Shown: positions 35,016 to 63,422, counted from the first letter of the stretch. The stretch is DNA of 64,000 nucleotides from Limisphaerales bacterium (GCA_050949405.1 JBMNFQ010000001.1:985160-1049159); one strand, 5' to 3'. The notes: generated by a model from the sequence alone, not told the origin. Made by a program: numbers and translations.

Positions 35016-35209
35016 ATATTTTTATTTTCCTGAAGTTCTTGTTGAGGCGGCTGTCAGATAGGAGCCGAGGAATTCTGCCTCAACAACACCGCTATGCTCT
35101 CACAAAACCCGAGGGGCGTCAACCGGCTTTTTCACCTGTCTCTCTCTATAAAAAAGACCTCCCTGACCGAAAAACATAACCCACCGAACGCAAACGGAAG
35201 AAGAACAGG

Positions 35210-35385
35210 AACCACGGATAAACACGGATGAACACGGAATTGTGAAGTGCCCTCCGGAGCGTTGCAGATCATTCTCTGAGTGTTTTTTAACGCATTGACC
35301 TGGATATTGTAGTTCTCATTGTGCACATATCTTTAAAGACTACCCGCCACAAAACATCAGTGTCTATCCGTGTCCATCCGTGGTT
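35210..35385. repeat. Dispersed inverted-repeat element, copy A
   Basis: Ends AACCACGGATAAACACGGATGAACAC / GTGTCTATCCGTGTCCATCCGTGGTT (22/26 complementary); core is the reverse complement of copies B and D. Confidence 0.9.
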
Positions 35386-35726
35386 ACTCTTTCGGTTCCT
35401 GTTCCCTGCTCATTGGTGGTTTCAATGTGAAATGCGTTCTGGTTATATTACCATTCTGGGGGATTGACAGCTTGGGACAAATCTGAGAAACTGACCCAAA
35501 GTTTATGAGTATTTTTACTTATACGATTCCAAAGTTTGACCAGGCTGTTAAAGCAAGGAATGTTGCTATACTCTATGCAATGCAAGAGGTAGAAGGTAAA
35601 CCTTGGAATGGAGGCACAATTTCTCAGGAGGAGGATGGTCATGCATCATCCCCACCCAAGAAAAGAGTGTAAAATAAAGAGCTGATCATACTGTAATAAA
35701 TTTAATTATTAGTGAAATAGAGAAGA

Positions 35727-36650
35727 ATGATGAATCAAAAAAACTCAAGACAAGGCGTGTATTTACTCTTGATGCTGCTTGTTCCAGTGTTATTGATTGT
35801 TCTTTTTTCTGTTAAAAATCGTTTTAGTCACGACATCCCGTTCAACATACATGAGACGAGAAGCATACTGCTATCATGGGAAAAATTATATTTTGTGCCA
35901 ATTTCTGACAATAAGAAATTGCTTTCTTACTTAAAGAGTGTGCCCATATCGGGCGAAGAATCGCTTTCTCCGATTCAGAAGGACACGTTATTTTCTTCTA
36001 TTGTGACGATGTGCGATGCCTACAGCCGCGGAACATACGATGCCTATAAGAAATTCCGAATTCCAGAGGGGATTCCTTATGAACTTAATGAGACAGAATG
36101 GGAGAAAATCGCAATGGATTGGTATCAATCTCATCCGAAATCTGCTCCAAGTGAGATCCCAAACGATTTGGAATTGTTTCGATGGTACGTTCTTACACAG
36201 AGCAAGGGAACATGTTATAATGATTATTGGCAAAAGATTTGCCTGGATAGCCGCAATATTTATAAAAAACTGGGCACCAAAAGTTTGCTGGATCAGGAAG
36301 CCCGTGCCGGTATTTATGTAAGCCGGGACTTTTTGTGGAACATGAATAACGGGGCGGGGAACTTTTATAACATGTTCACAGCCAGTGGGATTTTAAACGT
36401 TGGACCTTTTTTTAAGTTTTATCCCAATGGAATGGAAGATTTAGATTCTTTTGTATTTGAAAAAGTTTTATCCGTCAGCCTCTATTTTTTTGTAAAACCT
36501 TCACCGCCGGAACCGGTAATATCTCTGGCAGTGCAATGGGTTTGGGATGAACAAACAACCCAGTGGATTCCGATGAGCATGGTTCGGGGAGACTGGATGG
36601 CCATGGAAAACCCTGAATTTTCTAAATCCGGAAGATCTTTTGTGTTTTAA
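35727..36650 (+). CDS. Hypothetical membrane-anchored/exported protein, paralog 1
   Basis: 307-aa ORF in an AT-rich block, N-terminal hydrophobic helix, motifs shared with the next gene. Confidence 0.8.
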   Translation: MMNQKNSRQGVYLLLMLLVPVLLIVLFSVKNRFSHDIPFNIHETRSILLSWEKLYFVPISDNKKLLSYLKSVPISGEESLSPIQKDTLFSSIVTMCDAYSRGTYDAYKKFRIPEGIPYELNETEWEKIAMDWYQSHPKSAPSEIPNDLELFRWYVLTQSKGTCYNDYWQKICLDSRNIYKKLGTKSLLDQEARAGIYVSRDFLWNMNNGAGNFYNMFTASGILNVGPFFKFYPNGMEDLDSFVFEKVLSVSLYFFVKPSPPEPVISLAVQWVWDEQTTQWIPMSMVRGDWMAMENPEFSKSGRSFVF

Positions 36651-36684
36651 TTGAATATAATATTACAGCTTATAAAAAAATTTT

Positions 36685-37686
36685 ATGAAAAGAATCTATT
36701 TTTTATCTAAAATTTTATTTTTGATGTTTTTGGTTTTTAATATTTTTATTTTTACGGAAGATTCTCAATCAGAAGACCTTAATAAAGAATATCAAGCCAA
36801 GTTGGAAGCTATACACCAGGATAAAATGAAAATATTAGCCCGGTGGAAAGAATTGCCATATGAGACAATTTCAACTAACAGTTCATTTAAGGAATATATC
36901 GACAATATTGAATTTCAAGGTGAAATGCTTGAAGATTTGACAGAAGATCAATCCGAAAAACTTCGGGCGAGTTTATACAATATGTTCCTTGCCTACAATC
37001 AAGGAGATTTAAAAACATATTTAAAATTTCGGACACCACAGGGACCTGAGTGGAAATTAGAATATAATCTCTTGTGCAACTGGCTTGCAAAAGAAGGAAA
37101 GAGAGCAGATACAAACAATGAAAACCTTCATTTAACTTATGAAATATTAAGGGATGAAATTATTTTTAAAGCCTCCGGAGGCGATTATTATAAAGATTTT
37201 TGGGTGGGAGTTTGCATGGATGCTGTTGATATGGAATCCCATTTGGATAAAATTGAAAAAAATATCCCTTTAAATTTCGGGGTTGAAATTAAGAGAATAA
37301 GTGAGTTTAGTGTCTTTACAAGCGACATACGAATGACGTTGGATAAAAACAGGGAGGAATACTACCGTCTGGTAAAAGAAGAGGACAGAGTGGAGGCGGA
37401 GAAGTATCGTTACTGGCCCTTGGAATTTTCTGTTGTTCAAAACCCGTGTTTTAGAGAGACTGCCCCGATGAGGGAGACCTTCAGGAAAACTCATGACTTC
37501 CTTTTAGCCGATGTTTACTGTTTTGTAAAAAGAAAGGAACCGCTTCCTGCCATTCCGATACTGGCTCGTTTTTATTGGAATGAGTCATATCAAAACTGGT
37601 TGCCGCTTGGATTCGCCAGAGGATATCTTGAAAAAATGCCGGATCAATTCCCTGCAGGCTCAAAGGTCATTTTAGAGATATTCTAA
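36685..37686 (+). CDS. Hypothetical exported protein, paralog 2
   Basis: 333-aa ORF with a signal peptide; AYNQGDLKTYLKFRTP vs AYSRGTYDAYKKFRIP in paralog 1. Confidence 0.8.
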   Translation: MKRIYFLSKILFLMFLVFNIFIFTEDSQSEDLNKEYQAKLEAIHQDKMKILARWKELPYETISTNSSFKEYIDNIEFQGEMLEDLTEDQSEKLRASLYNMFLAYNQGDLKTYLKFRTPQGPEWKLEYNLLCNWLAKEGKRADTNNENLHLTYEILRDEIIFKASGGDYYKDFWVGVCMDAVDMESHLDKIEKNIPLNFGVEIKRISEFSVFTSDIRMTLDKNREEYYRLVKEEDRVEAEKYRYWPLEFSVVQNPCFRETAPMRETFRKTHDFLLADVYCFVKRKEPLPAIPILARFYWNESYQNWLPLGFARGYLEKMPDQFPAGSKVILEIF

Positions 37687-37756
37687 ACACTTTTGAAATG
37701 CCGCCTTGCCTCAAAAACAGGCACACCGAAAGGGGCATCCACAGGCTTCTGTAAGA

Positions 37757-37931
37757 AACCACGGATAAACACGGATGAACACCGATGTTTTGTGCCGGGT
37801 AATCTTTAACGGAATATGCACAATGAGACCCGCAATATCCAGGTCAATGCGGTAAAAGCACTCAGAGAATTACCCAGAACGCTCCGGAGGGCACTTCACA
37901 ATTCCGTGTTTATCCGTGTCTATCCGTGGTT
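37757..37931. repeat. Dispersed inverted-repeat element, copy B
   Basis: Same termini and core (CCAGGTCAATGCGGTAAAAGCACTCAGAGAAT...CGCTCCGGAGGGCACTTCACAATTCC), inverted relative to A. Confidence 0.9.
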
Positions 37932-38065
37932 ACTCTTTCGGTTCTTGTTCCCTGTCCAGCCGTGTGCATCCGTGGTTCCTTCCCGTGGTTTCAAAAGAAG
38001 GGGTGCGATGGCGGGCGGCGGTTATGAAGTTGGATTTGGGAGGGGTTGCGGGCATAATGGGTGCG

Positions 38066-40654
38066 ATGGCTGAGAAGTTGCCCATATATGAGATCGAGAG
38101 AGAGCTGGTGGCCGCGGTGGAGCGTGGCCGGCGGCTGATAGTTCAGGCGCCGACCGGCTCGGGCAAATCGACCCAGGTGCCGCAGATGCTTCTGAAGGGT
38201 GGGTTGCTGGACTCCGGCGAGGTGGTGGTTTTGCAGCCGCGGCGTCTGGCCACGCGGATGCTGGCGGTGCGTGTGGCCCGTGAGCTCTCCGTCGCGCTGG
38301 GGCAGGAGGTCGGCTATCAGATACGTTTTGAGAGCCGTGTTTCGGAGCGGACACGGATTCGTTATGTGACCGAGGGGGTACTGCTGCGGCAGATGATCCA
38401 GAATCCGGAGCTCGACGGGGTGAGCGCGCTTATCTTTGATGAATTCCATGAGCGGCATCTCTATGGGGATATCACGCTGGCGCAGGCTTTGGAGCTGCAG
38501 GCGCGGCGGCCGGATTTAATCCTGATCGTGATGTCGGCCACGCTGGAGCTCTCGGGCCTGCAGGAATACCTGGCGCCGTGCGAGGTGCTCTCTTCGGAGG
38601 GACGGGTTTATCCGGTCGAGATCGGCTATTATCCCCAGAAAGTCGGACCGTCTCAGAGGGGGTATCTGCCGGTTTGGGAACATGCGGCCGAGGCTTTTGC
38701 CGCCGCGGTGCGTCAGGGGCATCGGGGCGACTCGCTCATCTTCATGCCCGGCAGCTTCGAGATACACAAGACGCTGGAGGCTCTGAGGAATACCTCCGAA
38801 GCCAAAGGCCATATCCTCTTGCCGCTCCATGGGGAGCTCTCGAGCAATGAGCAGGATGCCGCCGTGGAGCAATATGAGGCACCCAAAATCGTGGTGGCGA
38901 CCAACGTGGCCGAGACCTCGCTGACCATCTCCGGCGTGCGGCTGGTGATCGATAGCGGGCTGGCACGAATACCGCGCTATGATGCGGTCCGGGGGATGAA
39001 TACGCTCTTTATTGAACGGATTTCGCAGGCATCCACAGAGCAACGGGCCGGCAGGGCCGGGCGGACGGCTCCGGGCCGTTGCCTGCGGCTTTGGGCTGAG
39101 CGCGAACAATGGTCACGGCCTCCGCAGGAGGTGCCGGAGGTGCGGCGTCTGGACCTGGCGGAGGTGATTCTGACCCTGAAAGCGGCCGGCATCAATGATT
39201 TACGCGCTTTCCGATGGCTTGAGGCGCCTGACGAGCTGAGCCTTTCGCGGGCGGAGACGCTTCTGCGTGAGCTCGGAGCGCTCAGCCCCGATGGAGCGAT
39301 TAGCGCGATCGGACGCAAGATGCTCGCTTTCCCGGTTCATCCTCGGTACTCGCGGATGTTGCTGGCGGCTCAGGAATATGGATGCGTGAGGCAGGCAGCA
39401 ATGATCGCCGCATTGACCCAGGGGCGAAACCTGCTTTTGCGGCAGGTGGGGCGCGAGGTGGAGGAGTTCCGTGATGAGCTTTTTGGAGAGGAGCACGATT
39501 CGGATTTCTGGCTCCTGATGCGCGCCTGGAACTACGTGGCCAACAATCAGTTTAATCTGAGCGCCTGCCGCAGAGCGGGCGTACATGGCATCACGGCGCG
39601 GCAGGTCCAGCCGCTTCTGGAGATGTTCCTCGATATTGCACAGCGGCAGGGGCTTGAAATCGACCATCCGATGCCCGATGACGAGAGCATCCGCAAGTGC
39701 GTACTGGTCGGCTTTTCTGACCGTCTGGCCAAGCGTCTGGACCAGGGCTCTCTGCGCTGCCTGCTGAGCCATGGACGCACGGGGCTCCTGAGCCGAGAAA
39801 GCGTGGTGCAATCGGCCCCGTTTTTCGTAGCGGCGGAGATTAGCGAAATTGAAGGGCGCGATAAGAGCGTCAGTACATTGCTCTCGCTGGCAACGGCGGT
39901 GGAGACCTCCTGGTTAGAGGAGCTTTATCCCGAGGAAATCGAGCTGGAGACGTTCGTGAGCTACGACTCCACGTCGCGAACGGTGCTGGCGGAGGAGCAG
40001 TTGCTTTTCCGGGGGATCGCGCTTGCCAAAAAAGCGCTGGTGCATCCGGGCGGCGCTGCCGGCTCCCGCAATTCCCGGGCCGCGGGGAGTGAATTCGCCT
40101 CCAAAGCGGCTGAGCTCTTGGCCGAGGAGGTACTGGCGGGCCGGCTGCAGCTCAAGCATTGGGACCATGCGCTTGAGCAATGGATATTGAGGCTCAATTC
40201 ACTGGCGCGCTGGTGTCCGGAGCTGGAGCTCGCGCCGATTGAAGAGGAGAACCGGCGGGCCATATTGCAGGAGATTTGCTATGGCGCCTATTCCTATAAG
40301 GAGATCAAGGAGGCGGATGTGAAAAGCGTGGTCAAATCGTGGCTTTCTTATGAGCAGCAGCGGCTCCTGGAACGCCATGCGCCCGAGCGGCTGGAGCTCT
40401 CCAACGGCAAGAAACCCAAGCTGGTCTACTCAGCCGATGCCTCTCCGCATATCGCGCTGCGGATTCAGGAGCTCTTTGACGTGAAGGCGGTGCCGAAGAT
40501 CGCGCAGGGCAGAGTGCCGGTCATTGTCCAGATATTGGCCCCCAATATGCGCCCGGTGCAGGTGACTCAAGACCTGGAGAATTTTTGGGTGGAGCACTAT
40601 CCCAAGCTGAAATCCCAGTTGCAGCGCAAGTACCCCAAGCACGAGTGGCGTTAG
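38066..40654 (+). CDS. hrpB: ATP-dependent helicase HrpB
   Basis: APTGSGKST, DEFHER, ATNVAETSLTI, QRAGRAGR, C-terminal RKYPKHEW; start set at ATG 38066. Confidence 0.95.
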   Translation: MAEKLPIYEIERELVAAVERGRRLIVQAPTGSGKSTQVPQMLLKGGLLDSGEVVVLQPRRLATRMLAVRVARELSVALGQEVGYQIRFESRVSERTRIRYVTEGVLLRQMIQNPELDGVSALIFDEFHERHLYGDITLAQALELQARRPDLILIVMSATLELSGLQEYLAPCEVLSSEGRVYPVEIGYYPQKVGPSQRGYLPVWEHAAEAFAAAVRQGHRGDSLIFMPGSFEIHKTLEALRNTSEAKGHILLPLHGELSSNEQDAAVEQYEAPKIVVATNVAETSLTISGVRLVIDSGLARIPRYDAVRGMNTLFIERISQASTEQRAGRAGRTAPGRCLRLWAEREQWSRPPQEVPEVRRLDLAEVILTLKAAGINDLRAFRWLEAPDELSLSRAETLLRELGALSPDGAISAIGRKMLAFPVHPRYSRMLLAAQEYGCVRQAAMIAALTQGRNLLLRQVGREVEEFRDELFGEEHDSDFWLLMRAWNYVANNQFNLSACRRAGVHGITARQVQPLLEMFLDIAQRQGLEIDHPMPDDESIRKCVLVGFSDRLAKRLDQGSLRCLLSHGRTGLLSRESVVQSAPFFVAAEISEIEGRDKSVSTLLSLATAVETSWLEELYPEEIELETFVSYDSTSRTVLAEEQLLFRGIALAKKALVHPGGAAGSRNSRAAGSEFASKAAELLAEEVLAGRLQLKHWDHALEQWILRLNSLARWCPELELAPIEEENRRAILQEICYGAYSYKEIKEADVKSVVKSWLSYEQQRLLERHAPERLELSNGKKPKLVYSADASPHIALRIQELFDVKAVPKIAQGRVPVIVQILAPNMRPVQVTQDLENFWVEHYPKLKSQLQRKYPKHEWR

Positions 40655-44818: not shown

Positions 44819-44966
44819 TTTCGCGCGTGCTCTGGAAAAGAGGAGCTCCGCTCTTGGCCGCGGCGGCGCATTTATTTATCGGCTCCGGCTCCTCTTTCCG
44901 GCAAGAGCAGAATACCATTGAAGCCCTTCTTCCGTCCAATAGATTCCCTCCGCCTCCCTTCACGGC

Positions 44967-45261
44967 AACCACGGATGGACACAAACGGAAGAGGAACAGA
45001 AACCACGGATAGACACGGATGAACACGGATGTTTTTGATTGTGTCGGTTCAAGCTGGTGTGCGAAATAGTATCCGCTGGCATTTAAGTCGAAACAGAGAG
45101 TAATTTCAAAGACTCATTCTCAAATCCGTGCCCATCCGTGGTTACAAAATGAAATAAGACCTGCTATGCCCAGGTCAATGCGGTAAACGTTTTGTATAAA
45201 TTACCGCAGCGCTCCGGAGGGCACTTCACAATTCCGTGTCTATCCGTGTCTATTCGTGGTT
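44967..45261. repeat. Dispersed inverted-repeat element, mosaic copy C
   Basis: Stacked AACCACGGAT units at 44967 and 45001, an unrelated spacer, an internal terminus at ~45124-45143, then the 3' half of the B/D core and a terminus ending 45261. Confidence 0.85.
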
Positions 45262-45340
45262 CCTTCCACTGTGCGTCCGTGGTTTCTTATGGGGGCCGCG
45301 GGTGAACACGAACAGACACTGATTGGTAGGGGGGGAAGTA

Positions 45341-45604
45341 TTATTTGTTCTTCAGCTCCTGGACTTCCTTGGCCAGAGCGGCAAGCCCTTCACGGTTCTT
45401 CTGAAGCTCGGCGATGACAGAATCGTTGAGGTTCTGCAGTGATTGCTCGGTAGGCAACTTCGAGACGCTCATAGCAATGCGCAACACGGCAAAAACAATC
45501 GCAACGAGCAGAACGATGATGGCGAAAACATAAACGTTTCCACCGCCACAAAGCCGCGATACTTCATCCGTTGTCGCAGCCGCTATCATCATGTTATGAA
45601 TCAT
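45341..45604 (-). CDS. Small single-TM protein with coiled-coil tail
   Basis: 87 aa; one strong TM helix then an amphipathic heptad pattern. Confidence 0.6.
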   Translation of the reverse strand: MIHNMMIAAATTDEVSRLCGGGNVYVFAIIVLLVAIVFAVLRIAMSVSKLPTEQSLQNLNDSVIAELQKNREGLAALAKEVQELKNK

Positions 45605-45730
45605 ATTCTAACCTTTCTATTCTGAACTATATTTCAACAAATGAGTTTCACGCGCACTCCGATTTCGCAACACAACCGCACGATTCACTAAACTCATTGA
45701 CCCCATTATGGTTCTTTTTATCCACATGAG

Positions 45731-46780
45731 TCAATTATTTTTTTCGATCTTAGTTTTTTCCTCCGTTTTTTCCTTAAAGTCCTCTACCTTTTCCGACTTT
45801 TTTTGAGGCGGAAACGACTCCGCAGGGAGAAAACGCCTGAGCAAATTGCTCTTTTGCGTGGCATTCATCTTCAGAAATTCCTCATCGGGAATGGATAAGA
45901 GGTTTTTGATATAGCTCAAATCTTTTAAAATTTTTTTCTGGGCATCATAGGACATCTCTAAAATTTTTTCGGCGTCGTTCATTTCTTTTATTTCTGAGGG
46001 AGTATACGTTCGTATGTTTTTAGAATCATTCAGACGTGTCTGAGATTTTACTATTTCTTTTAACAATTCATCAGTTGCAAGCAGCTCTTCGTAGTCCTCA
46101 GGTGTACTTTCTTTGTCTCTTATCGACAAGGGTGATGTCCGAAAAAGTGAACGTTCAGATACCCTCCATAAAATCAATTTTTTTGTACTTCCATCAATCA
46201 CAACGGTGCAGACATCTCTGGGGGTATTCGAGTCTTCATATCTAGATTTACCCTCCCATTTCACGGTGAAAATGGGTGATTTCAAAACTGTTATAGGCCC
46301 AAATTCCCCGTCTTTAGGAAAAAAGGAATATTCATGTTGCGAGATACTGTTGGTGTACCCTGATTCTAACTTTGTTATATCTACCCCACCTAGAACAAGC
46401 CAATTGGTCGCCAGCCGGTAGGCTCGCTGTTTATCGATTTTGGATTCAATTAAACACAATTCCTTTCTTCTTTTTTCAAATTCCTCTTTTCCTTTATCAA
46501 AGCTTGGAAGATAATTTTTTATTAAAAAACTACTTAAATAACCATCTGAAAAAGAAAATACGTAATTATATTTTGGAACAATAAATGACGCCCCAATACC
46601 CGTAATTTCACCTTCTTTTAAATTAATAGTGATAAAAGCTTTATCATTAAGGGTGGCGCTCGTTATGGGCGAATCCAATGGAATACCTAATGTTTCACAA
46701 AAATAAGTGGCATGAAGCGTTATGAGCATCATGGCAACAAAATTGAATGCTATATTTAATGGATGTGAAAAAAGTAACAT
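45731..46780 (-). CDS. Hypothetical protein, partner gene of the secreted protease
   Basis: 349-aa ORF starting 21 bp after the 936-aa gene; hydrophobic N-terminus. Confidence 0.75.
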   Translation of the reverse strand: MLLFSHPLNIAFNFVAMMLITLHATYFCETLGIPLDSPITSATLNDKAFITINLKEGEITGIGASFIVPKYNYVFSFSDGYLSSFLIKNYLPSFDKGKEEFEKRRKELCLIESKIDKQRAYRLATNWLVLGGVDITKLESGYTNSISQHEYSFFPKDGEFGPITVLKSPIFTVKWEGKSRYEDSNTPRDVCTVVIDGSTKKLILWRVSERSLFRTSPLSIRDKESTPEDYEELLATDELLKEIVKSQTRLNDSKNIRTYTPSEIKEMNDAEKILEMSYDAQKKILKDLSYIKNLLSIPDEEFLKMNATQKSNLLRRFLPAESFPPQKKSEKVEDFKEKTEEKTKIEKNN

Positions 46781-46801
46781 AAATTCATTAAAATTAAATT
46801 G

Positions 46802-49564
46802 TTAGTCGTAGCGGGTCAAATCCTTACAGCCAGAAATTTTCCATTTCCTCATTCCATTAAACACAGTGCCAAATATAAGGCCATCAAACGCATTAAGACA
46901 TACATCCAGAGCCTCCCCTTGCATCCAGTTCCTCCAAAAGGATGATAGTGCACTTTGATAATAGGAACTCATATAGTATCCAGACAGCCAATACTCAGTT
47001 GGAACAAGAATTCCCTTCTCCCATCCGACAAAGGCTCTCGGTTGGCGAGCACAATCCTTATAATCCTGTGCTGTACGAATAGTCCCACTTTTAATGAAAT
47101 CGACACCAAAAGCCGTAGCCATAAATTTTTCGTAAGAATAACACGAATTTAATATTGTCAATTTATAAGGGCCTTCGTTTAATTCCGGCTTCATTGAGTA
47201 TTCCATGTAATCTGATTCTGTGTTTTTATTTTTCAGTAAGGTTCGGATATCAGAAGAGTCCAGATAGCTAGTTTCTGGATTTCCGGCTATGGTACCCGAA
47301 TCAGTCCCATGGCCGAACCAGAAAAAATTACCGCTTCCAACCAGTGCGTTCGTAAGCACTCCCTTATCAACGTCGGTGTCATATCGAAAGGCCGTGGAAA
47401 CAAGGGGTGCATTAGCCGGTTCAGGCAAAACACGATATGAATGGCTCCAAACTGCGCCGTTCAAAAAATTTATAACCCCATCCCTCATCAGATCCGTACG
47501 TTGTTTTACGAAATTTTTTCCATATTCATCCCAACCCCAAGCGACTGTGAAAACATTGGGATTCTGAATAATTCCTTCCTTTCCATAAGATTTCGTTATG
47601 GTTCCCACTTGATTTGGATTAGTATCAGGTGTTCCAGGGACTATTTTAGCCTTAATTCCTCCAAAAGCTAGCTGAATGCCAGCTGCATTGCAAAGGTTCC
47701 ATCCTAACAATAGCCGCCCATCGGTAACGGAAAATACTCTCTCCGTGAGGGGGAAATCGTATTCATCATAAAGATAGACCGTATAGTGTGTTTCAGTATT
47801 GGAGCTCGACAAACTTGCGTCAATGACCAGTGTACTTGAGAAACGATCGGCCACTGGGTTAAATCTCAAAGGATTGGATAGATACACACTTTTAGTAATT
47901 CCTGCGATAATATCTTCGTCTTCATCACCATATTCGATGTACATCTGGATATCATGAACCCCATTAGTTAAGTAAGTGGTATTCCATTTAAGAACCCATG
48001 CTCCGTCTCCACGTTGTGTGAGAAAAGTATTATCTACGGGAAAACCATCTACCATCAGTCCTACCGAATTTCTATGTTCTCTTATCGTTGAAATTGCGTT
48101 TGGCAAAGGAAAATAAACGTGGCCTGACAGAGTGCTTCCGCTGGAGATAAACTGTAAGTTAAGCAGATTATCCTGCACCCCGGGATGGGTTCCCAAGAGA
48201 TATTCTGCCAGATTGTTTACACCATCCCCATCAGGGTCGCTCAACGAATTAGTGACGGAAAGATTCATTCCATAATCAAGTAACCATTGTTGGGGGATTT
48301 TTGGATCGTTTGTGCTCATTATTTGCTTAACGGTTATCCAAGACTTTAACATCCCTCCCTTACCATCCGTAACAACATATTCAAAGCGGTCGTCTCCGTA
48401 ATACTGCGGATTCCTTTCGTAGGTAATGTTGCCGCCGCTATGTGTAGCTGTTCCGTATTTTGGTGTTGTTAGCGCAAATAAGCTAATTGTGTCATTGTCC
48501 GGATCGGTCACATTAGTCAAAACGTTAAACGTTGCTGAGAAGGAGTTTGTCTGCAGGATTAAGAGAGTCGGAGCCAGTTGTTGGGGTGGATTGTTTCCGG
48601 TTTTGTTCACAAATACTGTAGTCTCTCCTATACCTTCACCTCCATATTTGTTTTCAATCAAATACAAAAAGGATTCTACTCCATAATAATTCGTGTTTGG
48701 GGTATAAAAGAGCGAAAATGGAACAGATACCCAAAATCCTTCTTCTTGATAGAAATTTTCATAATTAATTGTTCCGTATATAGGATTTGAGTATCCTGTT
48801 ATGAGAAAACTTTCATCATTTGGAGCGTGATCATTTTTTAGGATATCCAAATGGTTATAAAGACTATTCTGCTGGACCATGAAATAATCGGGCTCGGCCA
48901 CAGGAGAAATATCGACGACACGGAAAAACCCCGAAGTATACTGATCCTGTCCCAAATTTCCAATCAGTACGAAGATATTCGTTTCAGCAACGAAAGATGT
49001 CTCAAAATCCCATAAATCAGGGTTGGGGACAGAACTGGATTGGAGCATATATTCGCCGCCTGCCTTAGTGTTATGAATCAGAATAGTTGAATTGCTGACG
49101 TTGTTATTATATGCGCTAACGCCCGGGAATATTTCCAACCATAGTCCGTTTGTGTTTAACGTGGGTAAGGTGACCTGAGGCGTTCCTCCCTGGGAGCCAG
49201 AAGCCGGCAAAGGTGGTAAACTATCGGGAGTTGTCCGCATCACAGCCTCCTGGTTCTCACTCAAGGAAAACCTGGTATTGATTAATTGGGCCGCATCTTC
49301 CGGAGTGTCAGCAACCAAATATTTTCCATCGGCTCGTAAATAAACAGGTATTTCCCAATCCGAAGGATAGGGAGAACAGGGATAGGGAGGATAAATCACC
49401 CCTTTACTGTCAGCCGAGAGAAGATAAAACGTCCCCGAAGAAGGAGGGAAAACTCTTTGAAGGTTTTCATCTCCCTGAGATGTTTGGGCTAAAGCACACA
49501 GTTGGAATATCACAGCCGAGAAAAAAGCGATGAAAATCTTTTTGTTTTGTGTTCTGGTTTTCAT
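46802..49564 (-). CDS. Large secreted protein: cadherin/Ig-like repeats, TSP3-like Ca motif, C-terminal clan CD (caspase/gingipain-like) peptidase
   Basis: Signal peptide from ATG 49564; TDPDNDTI/TDGKGG Ig repeats; DPDGDGVNNLAEY; FWFGHG ... LTILNSCYS His/Cys dyad, AFVGW. Confidence 0.75.
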   Translation of the reverse strand: MKTRTQNKKIFIAFFSAVIFQLCALAQTSQGDENLQRVFPPSSGTFYLLSADSKGVIYPPYPCSPYPSDWEIPVYLRADGKYLVADTPEDAAQLINTRFSLSENQEAVMRTTPDSLPPLPASGSQGGTPQVTLPTLNTNGLWLEIFPGVSAYNNNVSNSTILIHNTKAGGEYMLQSSSVPNPDLWDFETSFVAETNIFVLIGNLGQDQYTSGFFRVVDISPVAEPDYFMVQQNSLYNHLDILKNDHAPNDESFLITGYSNPIYGTINYENFYQEEGFWVSVPFSLFYTPNTNYYGVESFLYLIENKYGGEGIGETTVFVNKTGNNPPQQLAPTLLILQTNSFSATFNVLTNVTDPDNDTISLFALTTPKYGTATHSGGNITYERNPQYYGDDRFEYVVTDGKGGMLKSWITVKQIMSTNDPKIPQQWLLDYGMNLSVTNSLSDPDGDGVNNLAEYLLGTHPGVQDNLLNLQFISSGSTLSGHVYFPLPNAISTIREHRNSVGLMVDGFPVDNTFLTQRGDGAWVLKWNTTYLTNGVHDIQMYIEYGDEDEDIIAGITKSVYLSNPLRFNPVADRFSSTLVIDASLSSSNTETHYTVYLYDEYDFPLTERVFSVTDGRLLLGWNLCNAAGIQLAFGGIKAKIVPGTPDTNPNQVGTITKSYGKEGIIQNPNVFTVAWGWDEYGKNFVKQRTDLMRDGVINFLNGAVWSHSYRVLPEPANAPLVSTAFRYDTDVDKGVLTNALVGSGNFFWFGHGTDSGTIAGNPETSYLDSSDIRTLLKNKNTESDYMEYSMKPELNEGPYKLTILNSCYSYEKFMATAFGVDFIKSGTIRTAQDYKDCARQPRAFVGWEKGILVPTEYWLSGYYMSSYYQSALSSFWRNWMQGEALDVCLNAFDGLIFGTVFNGMRKWKISGCKDLTRYD

Positions 49565-49796
49565 ACTGAAAAATTCCTTACTATTACACTCGTTAACTAA
49601 CGATAGCATCATTCCAATTTTTTGTCAAGCGACTTGGTATTTTTTTGTTCTTGTCGTGCTCTCCTAAAAGCTACTCAGTTGAAATGCAAGGAATTCTACC
49701 TCTGTTTCTATTCTTTTATCGGTTGGTTTCTAGCGTAATCATCTGTTTTTTCGACTTTTTCTAAGATAGACGATAGATTTAATCTTGTTCGGGTTC

Positions 49797-52229: not shown

Positions 52230-52250
52230 GAGTCCATCCTTTTTTGCCGG

Positions 52251-53246
52251 TTAGCGTCTGCCACCTCCCGGGCCTCCGGGCATCGGGGGACCGCCTCCGC
52301 CCGGGTTAAACCCACCGCCGGGCCTTCCACCCTGCCCGCTACCGGGTCCAAAACCGCCGCCGGGCCGGCCGCCTCCGCCACCGCCGCCGGATCCCCAGCC
52401 TCCTCCCTGAGCGCCTTGGCCGCCGCCGGGTCGACCGCCGCCGCCCATGCCGGGTCGGCCTCCCTGACCACCCTGGCCTCCTCCCTGGCCGCCTTGACCG
52501 CCGGGACCACCCTGACCTCCTCCCTGAGCGCCCATGGTCATGCCGCTGGAGACGGTGCCCTGGATTTGCGGGTCGATGATAGTGCCGCTCATGGCGACGA
52601 CGCGTGAATCGAGCTGGGCCGGTTCATTGCCGACGTAGCCGTGCCCCATCGAGACGCGTGCCAGTTGCGGCAGCGTATTGGTGTTTTCCCAGTCCAGGAC
52701 CCAGTCCAGCTCATTGGTATCCCAGAACTCGACGGCGAAGAACGAAATATCGGTGGAGAGCTCAATAGGCGGGATGAGGTCGGTATACTCCTCATCGATC
52801 AGGAGCGGATGCTGGTAGAGGATCAGGGAGTTGCGTCCGCTTTCATTGGCTTCGACGACGTAGGTGAGCCGTCGCAGGGGCAGGCCGTCATAGAGGCCGC
52901 TGCCGATAAACCCCGGCGGCAGATAGGCCACGAAGGAGAGGGCCGAGTAGTCGCCGTCGTTATCGACTTCAAAGCTGTAATAATTGGTGTTGGCCCGGAA
53001 CATCCGCGCGGACATCAGCGATTCGCTCAAGGCGCGCATTCCGACCCGTGTCCGCTGGGTTTCTTCGGCGGCAAAGCTGGCCGATTGTTTGCCCATGAGG
53101 ACGAGCGACCAGATTTCATAAATGGAGGTCAGGATCAGAGCGAAGATGAAGATGGAAATCATCACCTCCAGGAGGGTGAAGGCACCTCGGCAGCGCCGCT
53201 GCGGGGCCTGGGCTCTGATTTCGGGATTGTTCATTTCTTCAAGCAT
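52251..53246 (-). CDS. gspJ: Type II secretion pseudopilin J-like with Gly-rich tail
   Basis: GAFTLLEVMISI prepilin motif; W...NTLP C-terminal motif; position before gspK. Confidence 0.75.
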   Translation of the reverse strand: MLEEMNNPEIRAQAPQRRCRGAFTLLEVMISIFIFALILTSIYEIWSLVLMGKQSASFAAEETQRTRVGMRALSESLMSARMFRANTNYYSFEVDNDGDYSALSFVAYLPPGFIGSGLYDGLPLRRLTYVVEANESGRNSLILYQHPLLIDEEYTDLIPPIELSTDISFFAVEFWDTNELDWVLDWENTNTLPQLARVSMGHGYVGNEPAQLDSRVVAMSGTIIDPQIQGTVSSGMTMGAQGGGQGGPGGQGGQGGGQGGQGGRPGMGGGGRPGGGQGAQGGGWGSGGGGGGGRPGGGFGPGSGQGGRPGGGFNPGGGGPPMPGGPGGGRR

Positions 53247-53264
53247 GTTTTGCCTTTCCTGCGT

Positions 53265-53687: not shown

Positions 53688-53705
53688 CAGCCGCTTTTTC
53701 GGGGG

Positions 53706-54335: not shown

Positions 54336-54341
54336 GGTCGG

Positions 54342-55619: not shown

Positions 55620-55651
55620 CGTCAGTCCTTGTTTGAAACACCCATTTTGGG

Positions 55652-57850: not shown

Positions 57851-58033
57851 TTTCCCTTCTTTCGGTTGCGCTACCGGACTGAAACTCTACTCCATAATAG
57901 GACAAGTGCAAACCTATTTATAACCGGATAAGCTTTTGAGTGAGGAAGAAAGACCCACCCCTCGAAAAAATCCCCACCCGTTAAAAACCACCAAATCAAA
58001 ACAAAAAATCCGCCAGAGGAGGCAGGTACAAAT

Positions 58034-58353
58034 ATAAGGTATGCGGAGCAATAAGGTATGCGGAGCATACCCATAACATAGCCAGGGGTCATAGACCCCT
58101 GGTAGGGAGGTAGTAAAGATTCCCCCCCGACCCCGCAAGGGGTCGCATCCCATCATCCGTATGATAAAAAATGGGTAAATTCATGGTTTTGGGGTGATCG
58201 TTTTTTATTGGGCGTGTTGTTTTTTGAGTGTTGGCTGCGACCCCTCTGGGGTCGTCTGTTTGGTGGGGGGGATGGGTACCAGGGGTCTGAAGACCCCTGG
58301 CTATAAGATGGCATCCCTCCGGGATGCTTGAGAATGGTACGCTCCGCATACCT
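58034..58353. repeat. REPIN/BIME-like palindromic element
   Basis: Two homologous arms in inverted orientation (AGGTATGCGGAGC ... CCAGGGGTC-n-GACCCCTGG ... CGACCCC-n-GGGGTCG) around an AT-rich spacer; 17-bp tandem duplication at 58034-58067. Confidence 0.85.
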
Positions 58354-58422
58354 CATGTTTGTATGCCCCCCTGCAAGGCGTTAAAAAGAGAGGTGTGCTC
58401 CGTATACATGATGTTTACCTCA

Positions 58423-58458
58423 TTCCCTTTTCGGTGCGAATATTTTTGAGGCAATGCG
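58423..58458 (+). promoter_or_regulatory. 36-bp upstream motif, copy 1
   Basis: TTCCCTTTTCGGTGCGAATATTTTTGAGGCAATGCG, identical to 62259-62294. Confidence 0.55.
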
Positions 58459-58538
58459 CGAAGAGACAAAAATGAAAAGAACTCTTGACAAAACATGAAA
58501 AACGTGGTTTTGTGAGGTGTCTTAGTTTGACGAATAGT

Positions 58539-61445
58539 ATGTTAAAATCAAAGATCGCCCTTAAAATTGGTTTGGTTGTTGCCTTGGGTGTTTCCGCAGG
58601 ATACATCTCTTACTCCATTGCTCAGAACAATACTTCACTGCGGTTATCGGAGTTTAATTGGAAAACCATTTTGGATAATGTTGTAGATGCAACACCCCCT
58701 CTTCTTGCTGAAGAAATGCCTAATTTTGGGACTTTTTATTCGGCTCAATTTGGTGAATATATGCCTCCGCTTCCTGCCAACATTTTTGGGCTTCCTTTTT
58801 GGCCACTAGGTGATGGGTTTTACATAGTGGACGATCGTCAAGTAGATTATGATCTCTTAAATGCTGAGCCTGTATTAAATACATCTTCCTCTGACGGAAA
58901 TCGTTCTTCTGTTTCATCTGTTAGAAATACTCTTTCTAACGATGATGCTTATGGACAGATCCCGTATATGACCAATGTTTCGATTTTTCTTCCGACAACT
59001 AATTCTATCGCTTTCCAATTTGATATTGCCGGTGGAGTAAAAAATGTTCCTTATGATATTTTTAGAGGCGTGGAACTGGAAAATGCTGGAACAAACGTTG
59101 AAGCAGATATTTCTGATTGGACTTGGGTTGGTATTGGTTATGCTATGTCTCATTATATTTTTACAAATACTCTTTCAGATCAAGCATATTATGCACTAGC
59201 TAAACCAACTCAGACACACGTTTTCGGTTGGGGCAATAACGAAGTAGGTCAATGCGATGTTCCCCTTGATATCGCTAATGCAGTTATGGTTTGCGGAGGA
59301 GGTGGTCAAAGTCTGATCCTGCTTAATGATGGTACCGTGCGAGCTTGGGGACAAAATGCCAGCGGCCAGGGAAGTGTTCCCTCGGGTCTCTCTGAAGTAG
59401 CGCAAATTACCTCGGGCTGGTACCACAACGTGGCTCTTCGCGCAGATGGATCGATAGTTTCCTGGGGAAATAATACCTATGGACAGTGTAACGTCCCTTC
59501 CGGGTTGAATAGTGTCAAACTGATCTCTGCCAATGCGAACTACTCAGTGGCCCTCAAAACTGACACAACTGTGGCTGTCTGGGGCTTTACACCCAATAAT
59601 GAAAACGACATTCCTAGCGGTCTTACAGGCGTGGCTGCAATCTCTGCGGGGCCTTCTCACGTTCTGGCAGTACGTACCAATGGAACCGTCTCCGCGTGGG
59701 GCAGCAAAAGTGGTGGCAAATGCAATGTTCCTGCAGATTTGACCGATGTCGTTGACGTAGCCGCAGGGGTTCAGCACAGTCTGGCTCTTCGTGCAAATGG
59801 AACAGTGGTTGCCTGGGGCAAAAATGCCGATGGTGAATGTGATGTTCCGGCAGGCCTCACAAATGTAGTTGCCATCGCAACGGGCGGGAACCCTCTTAAT
59901 ACGACAAATTACCAGCCTTGGTCCATCGCTTTGCTCAGGGATGGAACGATAGCCAAATGGGGAAGCGGAGCTGTCGCAGAAAACTCGGACTCTTTTGATA
60001 ACATCATTGCTATTGCTGGTATTGGTCCTCATGCCTTGGCTCTGAGAACTGGTCCTAACACCCCGGTTGCCACAGTCACACCCGCTTTGCAATACAAACT
60101 CCAGGGTTCTAGTGCAACCATCTCATGCTCAGCAAATGGATTTGGAAGCAGCCTGACCTATCAATGGAAACACAATGGAACCAACATTGTCGGTGCCACC
60201 AATGCCACGCTCACTCTTTCAAATCTCCAGCCATCTCAATCGCATACTTACAGTGCCCTAGTGACAAGCAGTGTTGGAAGTTCTCTTACCTCCGACAGTA
60301 AGCTTTATATAATCACCCCTCCGGTAATTACTTCTCGCACTCCATCTACCAATCCTGTAATTTCGTTGGGGCAGTTGCTCTCTCTCAGCGTTACTGCTGA
60401 AGCCCCTTCTACAAATCTCTTCCCTATCAATTATTACTGGCTAAGAGAAAATTGGCTTTATCCTTTAGCATCAAATGGACGTTCCAGTTGTATTGTAACG
60501 GGTTATTTTTCAAATCCAAAAGTATACTCTGTGATTGTCTCTAATGCAGCAGGAACTACATCAGCAAATTGGTCTATCACCACGACGTCCGAAGGGACAT
60601 ATGCCGATGAAGGAACCTTGGCACACTATCTAGCGACCAATACGTTGTCCCATGCCTCAGGTAAAAGCTTAGCTAGTAACGGGCTTTTGTTAAATAACTG
60701 GCCATCTGGAACCGTAACAAATCATCCAACAAATCTTGGATATCTTTCAAATCTGACTTGGTCCACAAATTGCTGGCTTTCTGGCGTGCAAGGTCTTAGT
60801 GCAACTTCTATTGCAGCGGAGACAAGACACTCAGGACAAGCATTGGTGACCATGATATCACCCATTCACTTCATCAGAGCGTGGCATACCAGCAAATCCG
60901 CACATCCAGGTTCCAGTAACATCGTCTTTTTGAGTTCGAACAATCAACTTTATTGGAGAACCATATGTGAACAAACTCAAATTGAGAACACTGATATTAC
61001 TGTCGGAATTTTGAATTCAGAACTTCCAACTTCTGTTGGGTACTTACCTATATTGCCGGATAATTACTTCAATTACCTACCAACTAACAGCACACATATT
61101 ATTCAACAAATTGGGATGAACCAATATATGCGTGTGTTCAGCCAACCTTCATGGTTTGATTCTCAAATGTCTATTTACTGGGATCATACTTTGGAAGTGC
61201 CTTTCGGTCTCAGTTCAGAATGGAATATTAAGTTAACTACTGGAGACTCGTCCGCTCCAGAAAGGCTTTTAATAAATAATCAGCTTGTTTTATCAAGTTT
61301 CCACACTGGTGTACCAGCTGGACCAAATATTATTTATTTCAAAAACCAAATAAACGAAATAATGACTTCTCTTTCAGAGAGTTATAGCAAAAATAATTAC
61401 CAGGTTGAACAAATGCAATTAATTGGATTTAATCAATTATATTAA
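58539..61445 (+). CDS. Large secreted protein: RCC1/BLIP-II propeller, Ig domains, C-terminal trypsin-like serine protease
   Basis: N-terminal hydrophobic signal; about 7 GTVxAWGxNxxGQCxVP repeats; YQWKHNG Ig domain; ISPIHFIRAWH / TDITVG / TGDSSAP triad-like motifs. Confidence 0.8.
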   Translation: MLKSKIALKIGLVVALGVSAGYISYSIAQNNTSLRLSEFNWKTILDNVVDATPPLLAEEMPNFGTFYSAQFGEYMPPLPANIFGLPFWPLGDGFYIVDDRQVDYDLLNAEPVLNTSSSDGNRSSVSSVRNTLSNDDAYGQIPYMTNVSIFLPTTNSIAFQFDIAGGVKNVPYDIFRGVELENAGTNVEADISDWTWVGIGYAMSHYIFTNTLSDQAYYALAKPTQTHVFGWGNNEVGQCDVPLDIANAVMVCGGGGQSLILLNDGTVRAWGQNASGQGSVPSGLSEVAQITSGWYHNVALRADGSIVSWGNNTYGQCNVPSGLNSVKLISANANYSVALKTDTTVAVWGFTPNNENDIPSGLTGVAAISAGPSHVLAVRTNGTVSAWGSKSGGKCNVPADLTDVVDVAAGVQHSLALRANGTVVAWGKNADGECDVPAGLTNVVAIATGGNPLNTTNYQPWSIALLRDGTIAKWGSGAVAENSDSFDNIIAIAGIGPHALALRTGPNTPVATVTPALQYKLQGSSATISCSANGFGSSLTYQWKHNGTNIVGATNATLTLSNLQPSQSHTYSALVTSSVGSSLTSDSKLYIITPPVITSRTPSTNPVISLGQLLSLSVTAEAPSTNLFPINYYWLRENWLYPLASNGRSSCIVTGYFSNPKVYSVIVSNAAGTTSANWSITTTSEGTYADEGTLAHYLATNTLSHASGKSLASNGLLLNNWPSGTVTNHPTNLGYLSNLTWSTNCWLSGVQGLSATSIAAETRHSGQALVTMISPIHFIRAWHTSKSAHPGSSNIVFLSSNNQLYWRTICEQTQIENTDITVGILNSELPTSVGYLPILPDNYFNYLPTNSTHIIQQIGMNQYMRVFSQPSWFDSQMSIYWDHTLEVPFGLSSEWNIKLTTGDSSAPERLLINNQLVLSSFHTGVPAGPNIIYFKNQINEIMTSLSESYSKNNYQVEQMQLIGFNQLY

Positions 61446-61464
61446 CTGATATAAAATTTTTAAA

Positions 61465-62055
61465 ATGAGAAAAAATATTATAATAGCGGGGATCGCAATT
61501 CTAACATCGATCTTTGCGGTTTCCACTCACGCCCAAGGCAAAATCCTCCCTGCGGGAATATGGGATACTGGAATGGGATATATCGGAGTTTGCTTTTTGC
61601 GTCCGGAAAATCCGAATTTTGACGAAGAATTCACGGGATTCGCTTTTCTGGGCGGCACCTCATATGACATACTCCTTAATGGGGGTATTCGTACATTCTA
61701 TGCCTCTAAAGACGACGTCTTTACGCTTAATTCCATTCAATCGGGAACCTTCACTGAATTGAATCCGTATGGCGATCCAAACTCGCCACTGAAGGGTGAG
61801 TTTTACCTCGCGATTTACTCGGGCTATCCCAATTACGGCAACCCGGAAGATCCTTATTTCCAAGACCCTCTTTACGGCTGGGCTCTTCTGAATAACGATG
61901 GAAAATCAGTTTCCCTGGTAGATAGCGCATTAGGCTATGGAGCCGATGGGATCATCGTCGGTACGACGGTAATGGTTCCCGAGCCGGGGATCTTGGCACT
62001 TTGGGGGCTGGGAGCAGGGCTGCTTACGATGTACATCCGTCACAGGCGCTCTTGA
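61465..62055 (+). CDS. PEP-CTERM (exosortase-sorted) protein, paralog 1
   Basis: Signal peptide; C-terminal VPEPG + TM + basic RHRRS. Confidence 0.92.
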   Translation: MRKNIIIAGIAILTSIFAVSTHAQGKILPAGIWDTGMGYIGVCFLRPENPNFDEEFTGFAFLGGTSYDILLNGGIRTFYASKDDVFTLNSIQSGTFTELNPYGDPNSPLKGEFYLAIYSGYPNYGNPEDPYFQDPLYGWALLNNDGKSVSLVDSALGYGADGIIVGTTVMVPEPGILALWGLGAGLLTMYIRHRRS

Positions 62056-62258
62056 CGCGGAATACCCCACGAACCTTTTGGCAAAATATTTATATCCATT
62101 ATCTTAAATTGAGGTTTCGAGTCGCGTGGGAAAGGCCTGGCGATCCCGCCGCTAGGGGATGTTATACCTCTTTTAACGCCTCTATCGAATGAATTAGACT
62201 TCCCCTGATACGCCGGATAAATAAGGTTTTCCTACCCCTTTTCCAATACCGTTTTCAT

Positions 62259-62305
62259 TTCCCTTTTCGGTGCGAATATTTTTGAGGCAATGCGAATATT
62301 TTTGA
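62259..62305 (+). promoter_or_regulatory. 36-bp upstream motif, copy 2, with an extra TGCGAATATTTTTGA repeat
   Basis: Identical to 58423-58458; the 15-mer occurs at 62271 and 62291 (20-bp period). Confidence 0.55.
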
Positions 62306-62454
62306 TTCGCGCTTTTCCTCTTGTTTCCGAAGTTGTTATTCGTTACCATACGCATATATAGATTGATCGTGTGCCCAACCGAAAGTCTCCACCGGCGACC
62401 TTGCTGCGCGGAGCCTATCGTTGGGCAGGTATTAACAAACAAAAAAAGATAAAA

Positions 62455-63051
62455 ATGAAAAAGATAATTCTGCTGGCGGTGACCTTGGGGGCATGTTTTG
62501 GCGCGTATGCCCAAGGCAGCATTCACTACATTATTCCGAACGGAATACGGGCATATACACAAAAGCCGACCTCAATAGCTGTTAAAACGCTGGATCCGTG
62601 GGGTGAAATGCTCACCGGTTTTCTGTTTTATACCGGGCCTGACCCAAACGTGTTCCGTTTAGACCATTTCATGGACGGCATCGGCCTCCGAACATTTTTA
62701 GTTCGGGAAAAAGATGTTCTCGATTTGAATGCCATTCAAACGGAAAAGTTTAATGAACTGTATTACGGTCATGACTATACGTTCAAAGAAGGGGAATCAT
62801 TTTACATGGGAGTCTATACGGGAAGCGCCCCTCGGACATCTGAAGGCCTTTACGAAACACCGCTTTATGGGTGGGCTCTGTTGTCGAATGACACGGGGGA
62901 AATAACCTTAAAAGATAGCGCACTTGGCTATGCTGGCTACGAAGGGGGCATTATTGTCGGAACCTCGACCCTGGTTCCCGAGCCGGGAACGTGGGCTCTG
63001 TGGGCTCTGGGTGTGGCTTTGATCTCTTGCGCCCGCCACCGCAAGAGCTAA
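62455..63051 (+). CDS. PEP-CTERM protein, paralog 2
   Basis: MKKIILLAV signal (ATG 62455); PLYGWALL...DSALGY...GIIVGT shared with paralog 1; VPEPG + TM + RHRKS. Confidence 0.92.
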   Translation: MKKIILLAVTLGACFGAYAQGSIHYIIPNGIRAYTQKPTSIAVKTLDPWGEMLTGFLFYTGPDPNVFRLDHFMDGIGLRTFLVREKDVLDLNAIQTEKFNELYYGHDYTFKEGESFYMGVYTGSAPRTSEGLYETPLYGWALLSNDTGEITLKDSALGYAGYEGGIIVGTSTLVPEPGTWALWALGVALISCARHRKS

Positions 63052-63097
63052 TGAATTGATGGAACCAGGAAAGAATAGAGAACATAACCGAAAGAGT

Positions 63098-63272
63098 AAC
63101 CACGGATGGACACGGATGAACACCGATGTTTTGTGTCGGGTAATCTTTAACGGAATGTGCACAAAGAGACCTGCCATGCCCAGGTCAATGCGGTAAAAGC
63201 ACTCAGAGAATGATCCGCAGCGCTCCTGAGGGCACCTCACAATTCCGTGTTCATCCGTGTCTATCCGTGGTT
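63098..63272. repeat. Dispersed inverted-repeat element, copy D
   Basis: Same termini and core as B, same orientation; 175 bp. Confidence 0.9.
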
Positions 63273-63422
63273 CCTGTTCTTCTTCCGTTTGCGTGCATCC
63301 ATGGTTTCTTGCCGTACAAAAGAGGGGGGCTGTTTTTGCTTGAGGTTTGGGGGGAGGGGTGGCAGGCTTGGGGGCCCGGAGTCCGGCTTTAAATAAAAGA
63401 AGTCTGACAGAGAGAACTCGAT

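Follow-up and report, generated by a model that had tools for sequence, protein, structure and literature searches.

Four copies of a short inverted-repeat element, termed A to D, lie in a 64,000-nucleotide stretch of the genome of an uncultured member of the Verrucomicrobiota (C1:985160-1049159; the whole stretch is referred to here as the window). From their sequence they are very probably gene-less relatives of cassettes that carry a GxxExxY nuclease gene, similar in kind to REPINs (hairpins built of repetitive extragenic palindromic, or REP, sequences) or to miniature inverted-repeat transposable elements (MITEs). The genome (G000) is a single contig of 2,744,397 bp with a GC content of 51%. 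Each end of the element is formed by an arm that consists of AAC and three CACGGAT heptamers whose starts are spaced exactly 10 bp apart, the right end being the inverse of the left. A wider reading, in which the copies are foldback elements whose arms are recognition arrays of the GxxExxY nuclease and which may take part in the turnover of neighbouring cassettes, is favoured here on balance, with considerable reserve.

Arms shared with a GxxExxY nuclease gene

When the window was searched with the arm pattern AACCACGGATNNACACGGATNNACAC, allowing up to three mismatches, nine matches were found, compared with none in 100 dinucleotide-preserving shuffles. A first-pass annotation, made from the sequence of the window alone, had described terminal inverted repeats of ~26 bp; the repeats themselves are upheld by this comparison, whilst their length is corrected to ~29 bp. 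The genome contains a single full-length GxxExxY gene (1,770,270-1,770,646; TIGR04256 133 bits, PF13366 123 bits), which lies 720 kb from the window and encodes a product of 128 aa. To the left of this gene are two tandem 75-bp mini-hairpins with CAC(G/A)GAT arms, and to its right is a solo arm (genome 1,770,689-1,770,721) that is identical to element arms, for example the one at 798934. PF13366 has one further match in the genome, a 33-codon remnant of the N-terminal part of a GxxExxY gene (genome 1,058,713-1,058,811), and at a distance of ~110 bp from it there is an array that belongs to a second family, AACCGCAGATTACGCAGAT, with ~36 arrays in the genome. With CACGGAT arms beside the intact gene and a AACCGCAGATTACGCAGAT array beside the remnant, each array family therefore has a GxxExxY locus of its own. 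The second family has the form AACCGCAGATTACGCAGAT(T/G)..CACAGAT and is often followed by a GCGACCCC....GGGGTCG hairpin; the locus with the remnant (genome 1,058,713-1,058,945) lies ~9.5 kb to the right of the window.

Arrays of this kind are a general feature of GxxExxY loci. GxxExxY genes are carried by 29 of 40 related genomes, and inverted three-unit arrays are found around nearly every one of them, with a unit sequence that varies from gene to gene. A further sample of 80 loci was drawn from many phyla (close homologues at 62-95% identity), and in the 78 that were scored the best inverted repeat between the gene flanks reached at least 16 in 48 cases, compared with 1 of 71 shifted controls; almost all of the arms in this set read GAACCAC(G/A)(G/A)ATGGACAC... 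When the loci from the related genomes and from the many phyla were pooled, phased C(A/G)CnRAT arrays flanked 81 of 84 genes with a product that shares at least 60% identity with the G000 protein, including one in a Methanosarcina metagenome-assembled genome (MAG), whereas they flanked 3 of 18 same-order paralogues of below 45% identity, which use other units. The array, in its sequence too, therefore follows the nuclease clade and not the host. That the arms are nearly alike across phyla indicates that gene and arms have been transferred horizontally as one unit. Proteins of the clade (L074-L153; 62-77% identical) were found in Verrucomicrobiota, Acidobacteriota, Desulfobacterota, Gamma- and Zetaproteobacteria, Planctomycetota, Chlorobium and the Methanosarcina MAG, and one gene copy of the clade (L107) has an in-frame stop.

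It is on the arms around the GxxExxY gene and on the difference between close homologues and paralogues that the reading of the window copies as gene-less relatives is founded: they share the arm sequence and the phasing of the cassettes, but have no gene between their arms. An association of similar repeats with GxxExxY genes in PVC genomes had been mentioned, as unverified, in the first-pass annotation, and it is confirmed by the arrays that flank the single intact gene of this genome and by the analogous arrays in the related genomes and the 80 loci. The annotation had also suggested a search for longer copies enclosing a nuclease or a transposase; the same arms do bracket the GxxExxY nuclease gene, and no long copy enclosing a transposase was seen.

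The GxxExxY protein has invariant residues at E35, Y38, D74, K86 and Y102, with Q98 nearly invariant, a set that makes up the PD-(D/E)XK motifs and the QxxxY motif of RecB-type nucleases. No match was found when its sequence was compared with PDB chains. Its structural model (mean predicted confidence, pLDDT, 87) gave best fold matches, all weak, to the alkaline and lambda exonucleases, the Cas4 protein SSO0001 and the Hjc resolvase; with the motifs intact, the model points to a PD-(D/E)XK fold of the RecB/Cas4/lambda-exonuclease type.

The element family and its copies in the window

Across the genome 46 arm matches were found, which resolve into ~24 elements or fragments confined to the part of the genome from 303 kb to 1,771 kb, so that the genome-wide count of copies proposed with the first description does reveal a dispersed, gene-less family with inverted-repeat ends. 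Elements are also present in six of seven congeners, which hold more of them than G000 does. The core of the window copies is a conserved segment of 115 bp with no open reading frame (ORF) inside it. Core clustering showed types 1 and 3 to be homologous (32 copies in four species), and in the alignments the left half of the type-2 core can be read as homologous to both. Arm columns carry 1.70 bits compared with 1.21 bits for core columns; the heptamer positions are near-invariant and the 3-nt spacers are free to vary. At least some of the elements are old: the one at genome 1,135,047 has a positional orthologue in the congeners G004 and G005 that is 95% identical, with flanks at ~82-84%. The composition of the genome is bipartite (53-56% GC at 0-1.6 Mb, 45-46% at 1.7-2.3 Mb), and all of the CACGGAT elements, together with most copies of the other repeat families, are found in the high-GC part or at its edge. 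An assembly chimera as the cause of the 45% GC part, which holds the GxxExxY gene, was ruled out, because this part is syntenic with the congeners at 77-78% identity.

The elements are able to fold, copy B being predicted to form a long hairpin on either strand (-66.6 kcal/mol, z -5.6, on one and -74.6 kcal/mol, z -7.3, on the other). Compensatory changes from G-C to A-U preserve the inverted arrangement of the arms, but in an RNAalifold consensus of 20 copies (covariation term -0.78) such changes are confined to the arm stems and one short stem, and an Rfam scan of the whole window returned nothing at gathering score. The proposal of a structured RNA was dropped because this consensus supports the arm stems only; the covariation analysis suggested for it is thus positive for the stems and negative for the core.

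Re-reading of each site bore out the four copies where they had first been placed, and their coordinates are collected in Table 1. Copy A is the reverse complement of copies B and D (85-94% identity), and B and D run in the same direction (89% identity over 184 nt); in a multiple alignment of the G000 copies those of type 1 are 86-91% alike (best pair 91%), and the same range applies to copy A when compared with B, D and the copy at genome 427291. Copy C is indeed a mosaic, as had been described, made up of an orphan unit with an extension, a complete type-2 element (76-80% identical to copies at genome 613146, 819060 and 891780) and the 3' part of a type-1 element. The two end extensions that had been reported as recurrent were found again, both in the window and elsewhere in the genome. 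At the position of the solo arm to the right of copy B, three congeners (G001, G004 and G005) have a mini-hairpin of CACGAAG/CACAAAT units, and the outer unit of copy D, GTGCATCCATGGTTT, occupies the position that the right arm of the slot at 57956-63324 has in G001.

Table 1. Coordinates of element copies, arms, motifs and neighbouring cassettes in the window
Feature	Window position	Strand	Description
Arm matches	35210, 35360, 37757, 37906, 37952, 45001, 45236, 63098, 63247		
Copy A	35190..35410	-	Type-1 element 35210-35385, core reversed relative to B; outer extensions GCAAACGGAAGAAGAACAGGAAC (left) and GGTTACTCTTTCGGTT (right)
Cassette 1	35727..37686	+	Two genes, products without Pfam match, 37-41% GC; A and B inverted around them
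IS-end-like motif	37702..37738	-	CCCTTTTCGGTGCG..TTTTTGAGGCAA.GCG; resembles terminal inverted repeats of the rve-type IS
Copy B	37757..37943	+	Type-1 element 37757-37931 and extension GGTTACTCTTTCGGTT
Solo degenerate arm, right of B	37949..37983	-	CCCTGTCCAGCCGTGTGCATCCGTGGTTCC
Copy C, outer part	44967..45003	+	Orphan AACCACGGATGGACAC unit and GCAAACGGAAGA-type extension
Copy C, left	45001..45143	+	Complete 143-bp type-2 element: same arms, different core
Copy C, right	45153..45264	+	3' 112 bp of a type-1 element, including right arm
Cassette 2	45341..49612	-	87-aa ORF, 349-aa ORF, 936-aa Big_9/cadherin-like protein
Slot content left of D	57957..63085	+	REP-type hairpins, IS-end-like motif, cassette 3
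IS-end-like motif, second copy	58423..58458	+	Identical to the 62259-62294 copy
IS-end-like motif, third copy	62259..62294	+	
Copy D	63086..63310	+	Type-1 element 63098-63272, both extensions, further outer unit GTGCATCCATGGTTT
IS, insertion sequence.

Cassettes and variable slots

Every copy adjoins a block of 36-45% GC, set against a background of 55-64% GC, and the products of these blocks include Big_9/cadherin-like, RCC1+Ig and PEP-CTERM proteins, as well as two without a Pfam match. Among the congeners, cassette 1 was found only in G005, where the same two genes reside at another locus; no CACGGAT arms flank them there, and a simple composite transposon of the form A-cassette-B is therefore not supported. 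Cassette 2 is partly syntenic in G001, G004 and G005, much of it at 83-91% identity. Cassette 3, which encodes a 986-aa RCC1+Ig protein and two PEP-CTERM proteins, was not found in any of the seven congeners. The description of these blocks as foreign-looking is accordingly to be qualified, in view of the synteny of much of cassette 2. The two PEP-CTERM genes have their C-terminal sorting-signal region in common (61948-62012 and 62947-63011; 72% over 65 nt).

Comparison with the congeners revealed that gene content differs between species at array-bounded sites. G001, G004 and G005 are mutually close and are ~80-85% identical to G000 in genes. In regions chosen for synteny comparison because they hold elements, 10 of 12 G000 elements were found at the edge of a segment, 1 kb or longer, which in one or more of the congeners is missing, has been replaced or has been rearranged. 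The left flank of copy A adjoins rRNA-operon sequence in G004 and G005. Copy C was not found in G001, G004 or G005, which have an unrelated 168-bp spacer instead; judged from these sequences, site C represents replacement of the whole intergenic spacer and not insertion with duplication. The slot at 57956-63324 holds cassette 3 and copy D in G000, one LRR_5 gene between the left array and the right arm in G001, and, in G005, two elements that follow the same left array and have a T5orf172 gene between them: one array-bounded slot with three unrelated gene sets in three species. The G005 gene (L034, G005:C15:2662-3638) encodes a 231-aa T5orf172/MUG113-domain protein and sits exactly between two type-3 elements; the T5orf172 domain is related to GIY-YIG nucleases.

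Other sites vary in a similar manner. The slot at 423 kb ranges from a solo arm in G005, through one element in G001 and a nested element in G004, to two to three elements in G000, where they surround a gene for a 1112-aa BspA-type leucine-rich repeat (LRR) protein. At 807 kb, G000 and G005 each have one element and G004 has two around ~5.6 kb. The element at 798792 lies, together with an rve-type insertion sequence (IS), inside a 3.6-kb segment that is found only in G000. Where G004 has its GxxExxY cassette, G005 has a hairpin with no gene, and a 1-kb inversion at this place has its breakpoints in the hairpins. An element lies within 1 kb of four of the 17 LRR_5 loci of G000, compared with an expectation of ~0.3 (24 elements x ~2.2 kb / 2.74 Mb x 17). 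These BspA-type LRR paralogues, which carry signal peptides and form a family that is highly variable among the congeners, include genome 303,569-304,900, 423,640-427,291 and 788,650-790,623.

Two further features of the window stand apart from the elements. A GC-rich imperfect repeat with a period of 9-27 bp (GCC.CC.CC units) at 52344-52532, inside overlapping long ORFs, probably encodes a low-complexity stretch rich in Gly and Pro. Two genes separated by 5.2 kb share a 77-bp stretch that is 82% identical (26815-26891 and 32038-32114), and are probably paralogues.

Proposed mechanism, alternatives and significance

In the proposed mechanism the arms would be recognition arrays that present one heptamer per helical turn and stand in inverted order at the two ends. 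Between its arms the full form has the nuclease gene, where the window copies have the 115-bp core. Co-variation and co-location of gene and array make it reasonably probable that the nuclease recognizes the phased heptamers. It would bind them, either in duplex DNA or in the extruded hairpin, and cut at these sites. Other array-bounded loci would then serve as templates for repair of the breaks, or ordinary homologous recombination among the scattered palindromic copies would have the same outcome. The content between the arms, be it a core, a nuclease gene or a surface-protein cassette, would in this way be copied, replaced or inverted without target duplication. The window elements would then be REPIN-like passengers of the nuclease, and their recombinogenic behaviour would explain in part why they are found at cassette borders. 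The idea that nuclease action at the arrays contributes causally to cassette turnover is a tentative hypothesis, and one to be doubted; it is consistent with the absence of target duplications, with content that is replaced rather than inserted, and with the inversion breakpoints. A more specific form, homing-like cassette conversion, in which the nuclease would break DNA at the arms and repair would swap content between slots and, after transfer, between genomes, with neither a transposase nor a target duplication, is unlikely.

Several observations weigh against the recognition-array reading, and a number of them would be expected if the elements were inert relics, derived from GxxExxY cassettes but inactive, that pile up independently of low-GC surface genes in permissive intergenic DNA, with only an incidental link to the cassettes. 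No two copies in G000 are identical (the best pair is at 91%), and there is therefore no sign of present-day activity in this genome. The comparison for empty sites and target duplications that had been suggested gave neither a target-site duplication nor a clean empty site at the loci compared (site C, the 423-kb slot, the G005 cassette-1 locus, the slot left of D and the G004 GxxExxY cassette), where the content was replaced, nested or rearranged. The association with low-GC genes across the genome, on which the first-pass annotation had staked its case, failed to appear: 10 of 24 elements have a flank of below 46% GC compared with ~31% of random intergenic sites (Mann-Whitney p 0.44-0.72). 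Its proposal that the elements mark or mediate cassette acquisition consequently stands in part, with the variable segments at 10 of 12 elements and the enrichment beside LRR_5 genes in its favour and this null result opposed to it. G005 (92% complete), G003 (63%) and G007 (71%) contain elements with no GxxExxY gene detected, and here the elements have thus been retained in its absence. REP hairpins and IS-end-like motifs gather in the same regions, and variable regions may simply tolerate repeats; the choice of synteny regions by their elements is also to be set on this side. Moreover, an nhmmer profile of the core has no similarity to any of 110 GxxExxY loci, so that the core is not an evident deletion derivative of the nuclease gene, and no biochemical data on any GxxExxY protein were found in the literature searched. 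Inert relics would not, however, account readily for arms that are better conserved than cores, for a positional orthologue that is closer than its flanks, for slot boundaries that match arms exactly at several independent loci, or for the enrichment beside LRR_5 genes, and this explanation is regarded as rather improbable, though one to be reckoned with.

Terminal inverted repeats, a size of ~150-180 bp, an intergenic position and several cores on the same ends would all suit classical MITEs mobilized in trans by a transposase of the DDE or Y1 kind whose gene lies at another place in the genome, and candidates for both exist. An rve-type IS is present in five copies (one at 795,444-796,740), and motifs that resemble its ends occur in ~41-65 copies genome-wide (41 solo copies by the strict pattern). 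The solo copies adjoin many elements and are joined to arrays of the CACGGAT and CGCAGAT kinds at junctions of constant sequence, for example ...GAGGCAA.GC.CAGGGTAAGGAAC|CACGGAT. The terminal repeats of this IS (TTGCCTCAAAAA...GCACCGAAA) are nevertheless unrelated to the CACGGAT arms, and pairs of the motif that flank an element are in direct and not inverted orientation; the IS therefore does not mobilize the element and was ruled out as its partner. The single Y1 transposase gene, which is RAYT-like (REP-associated tyrosine transposase; genome 883,856-884,203; Y1_Tnp, 88 bits), is flanked by REP hairpins of the forms GCGACCCC(N4)GGGGTCGC and CCAGGGGTCT..AGACCCCTGG (genome 883,700-884,650) and not by CACGGAT arrays; it was rejected because its REPs are a different repeat. 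The same REP hairpins also fill 58040-58330 of the window. As had been stated, no transposase was found in the window, in the sense that none of those located (the five rve-type IS copies and the Y1 gene) lies there, not every ORF of the window having been scanned for other families. The label MITE-like is thus apt as far as a small, non-autonomous element with terminal inverted repeats is meant, but there is no target-site duplication, clean empty site or transposase with matching ends to go with it, and mobilization in trans is very improbable. Phasing at 10 bp would suit cooperative binding on one face of the helix, and this, together with a core conserved in four species, a very stable hairpin and intergenic positions often beside genes for exported proteins, might also be taken to mean that the elements are host cis-acting sites, either for a regulator or nucleoid protein, or as terminator, promoter or small RNA of the adjoining surface-protein genes. 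A host regulator would leave unexplained why the same arrays accompany the nuclease gene across phyla, an archaeon included; the elements also stand in either orientation and on either side of genes, and they have no Rfam family match and no covariation in the core. This explanation is accordingly judged improbable. There is a slighter chance still of an Ssn-like role, in which the nuclease would cut single-stranded DNA at hairpins and modulate natural transformation, with the dispersed copies serving as self-marks. The architecture is as in Ssn/SRM, a small nuclease gene flanked by a dispersed repeat (PMC11893778), and the elements fold into hairpins. The predicted fold is PD-(D/E)XK and not GIY-YIG, the copy number here is in the tens and not the hundreds, and such a role would not by itself explain the differing content between arms.

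The GxxExxY arrays have features in common with several known systems. MITEs, of which the Correia elements of Neisseria are an example, depend on DDE transposases for their movement and produce target duplications (TA in the case of Correia). The present elements resemble them in size (~100-180 bp), inverted ends, core variants, hairpin formation and an intergenic position beside surface-protein genes, but differ in that neither a duplication nor a matching transposase was found. Tn7 and Mu have several transposase-binding sites at each end, and the TnsA protein of Tn7 is a PD-(D/E)XK nuclease that cuts at the element end. The arms are likewise repeated short sites, direct within an end and inverted between ends, with binding predicted here; Tn7 and Mu, however, require a DDE transposase and leave 5-bp duplications, whereas the GxxExxY cassette encodes only a 128-aa protein. 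Integron attC cassettes and the pdif modules of Acinetobacter plasmids depend on tyrosine recombinases (IntI and XerCD, respectively) with defined core sites. They have in common with the present slots that cassettes are bounded by short imperfect inverted repeats and that the same slot holds different genes across genomes, but the ends here, AACCACGGAT.../...ATCCGTGGTT (...ATCCGTGGTTACTC or ...GGTTCCTG), depart from GTTRRRY and have no linked recombinase of this type, the genome not having been searched for IntI.

The closest likenesses are to systems in which a single-copy gene is bracketed by a repeat that is dispersed without the gene elsewhere in the genome, namely REP/REPIN-RAYT systems (REPtrons) and TIRtrons with their TIRYT genes (PMC3733652). 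Shared features are the dispersed palindromic units, the intergenic clusters and the presence of several repeat families, each with its own gene. Unlike in REP/RAYT, the enzyme appears to have a PD-(D/E)XK and not a Y1/HUH fold, and the arms consist of three phased heptamers where a REP is one short hairpin with a GTAG tag; G000 also has a RAYT of its own with unrelated REPs, and its Y1 gene is not flanked by the CACGGAT repeat. Ssn is a GIY-YIG enzyme for which single-strand cutting and an effect on transformation have been shown (PMC11893778). Ssn/SRM (NTS) is similar to the GxxExxY system in having a small nuclease gene with hairpin repeats on both sides and dispersed around particular genes, and in a repeat variant that tracks the nuclease. 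The repeats described here are longer, with phased units that enclose a 115-bp core or whole genes, and the linked gene belongs to PF13366/TIGR04256 and not to GIY-YIG, so that the likeness is one of architecture alone.

GxxExxY/PDDEXK_3 proteins are very widespread. A survey of PD-(D/E)XK nucleases in 2012 recorded the family in prokaryotes and viruses, with multiple transfers and an unknown function (PMC3424549), and the literature searched for GxxExxY, PDDEXK_3, PF13366 and TIGR04256 contained incidental mentions only, with no assigned function. No paper describing a partnership of this nuclease with a repeat was found there, the closest being those on REP/RAYT, TIRtrons and Ssn/SRM. Three things are added by the family described here. 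It has a population of members that lack the gene yet share a core conserved from species to species; the genome has two array families, each of which goes with a GxxExxY gene of its own, intact in one case and decayed in the other; and orthologous array-bounded slots hold different content in close species, surface-protein genes included. Even if the nuclease does not act at the arrays, the elements would still be useful markers of hypervariable sites in these Verrucomicrobiota. If it does, this would be a third partnership of a nuclease with its own repeat, after RAYT/REP and Ssn/SRM, and a possible source of sequence-programmable nucleases. Were homing-like conversion to prove true, it would constitute a new route to surface-protein diversity and the first function for a very large nuclease family.

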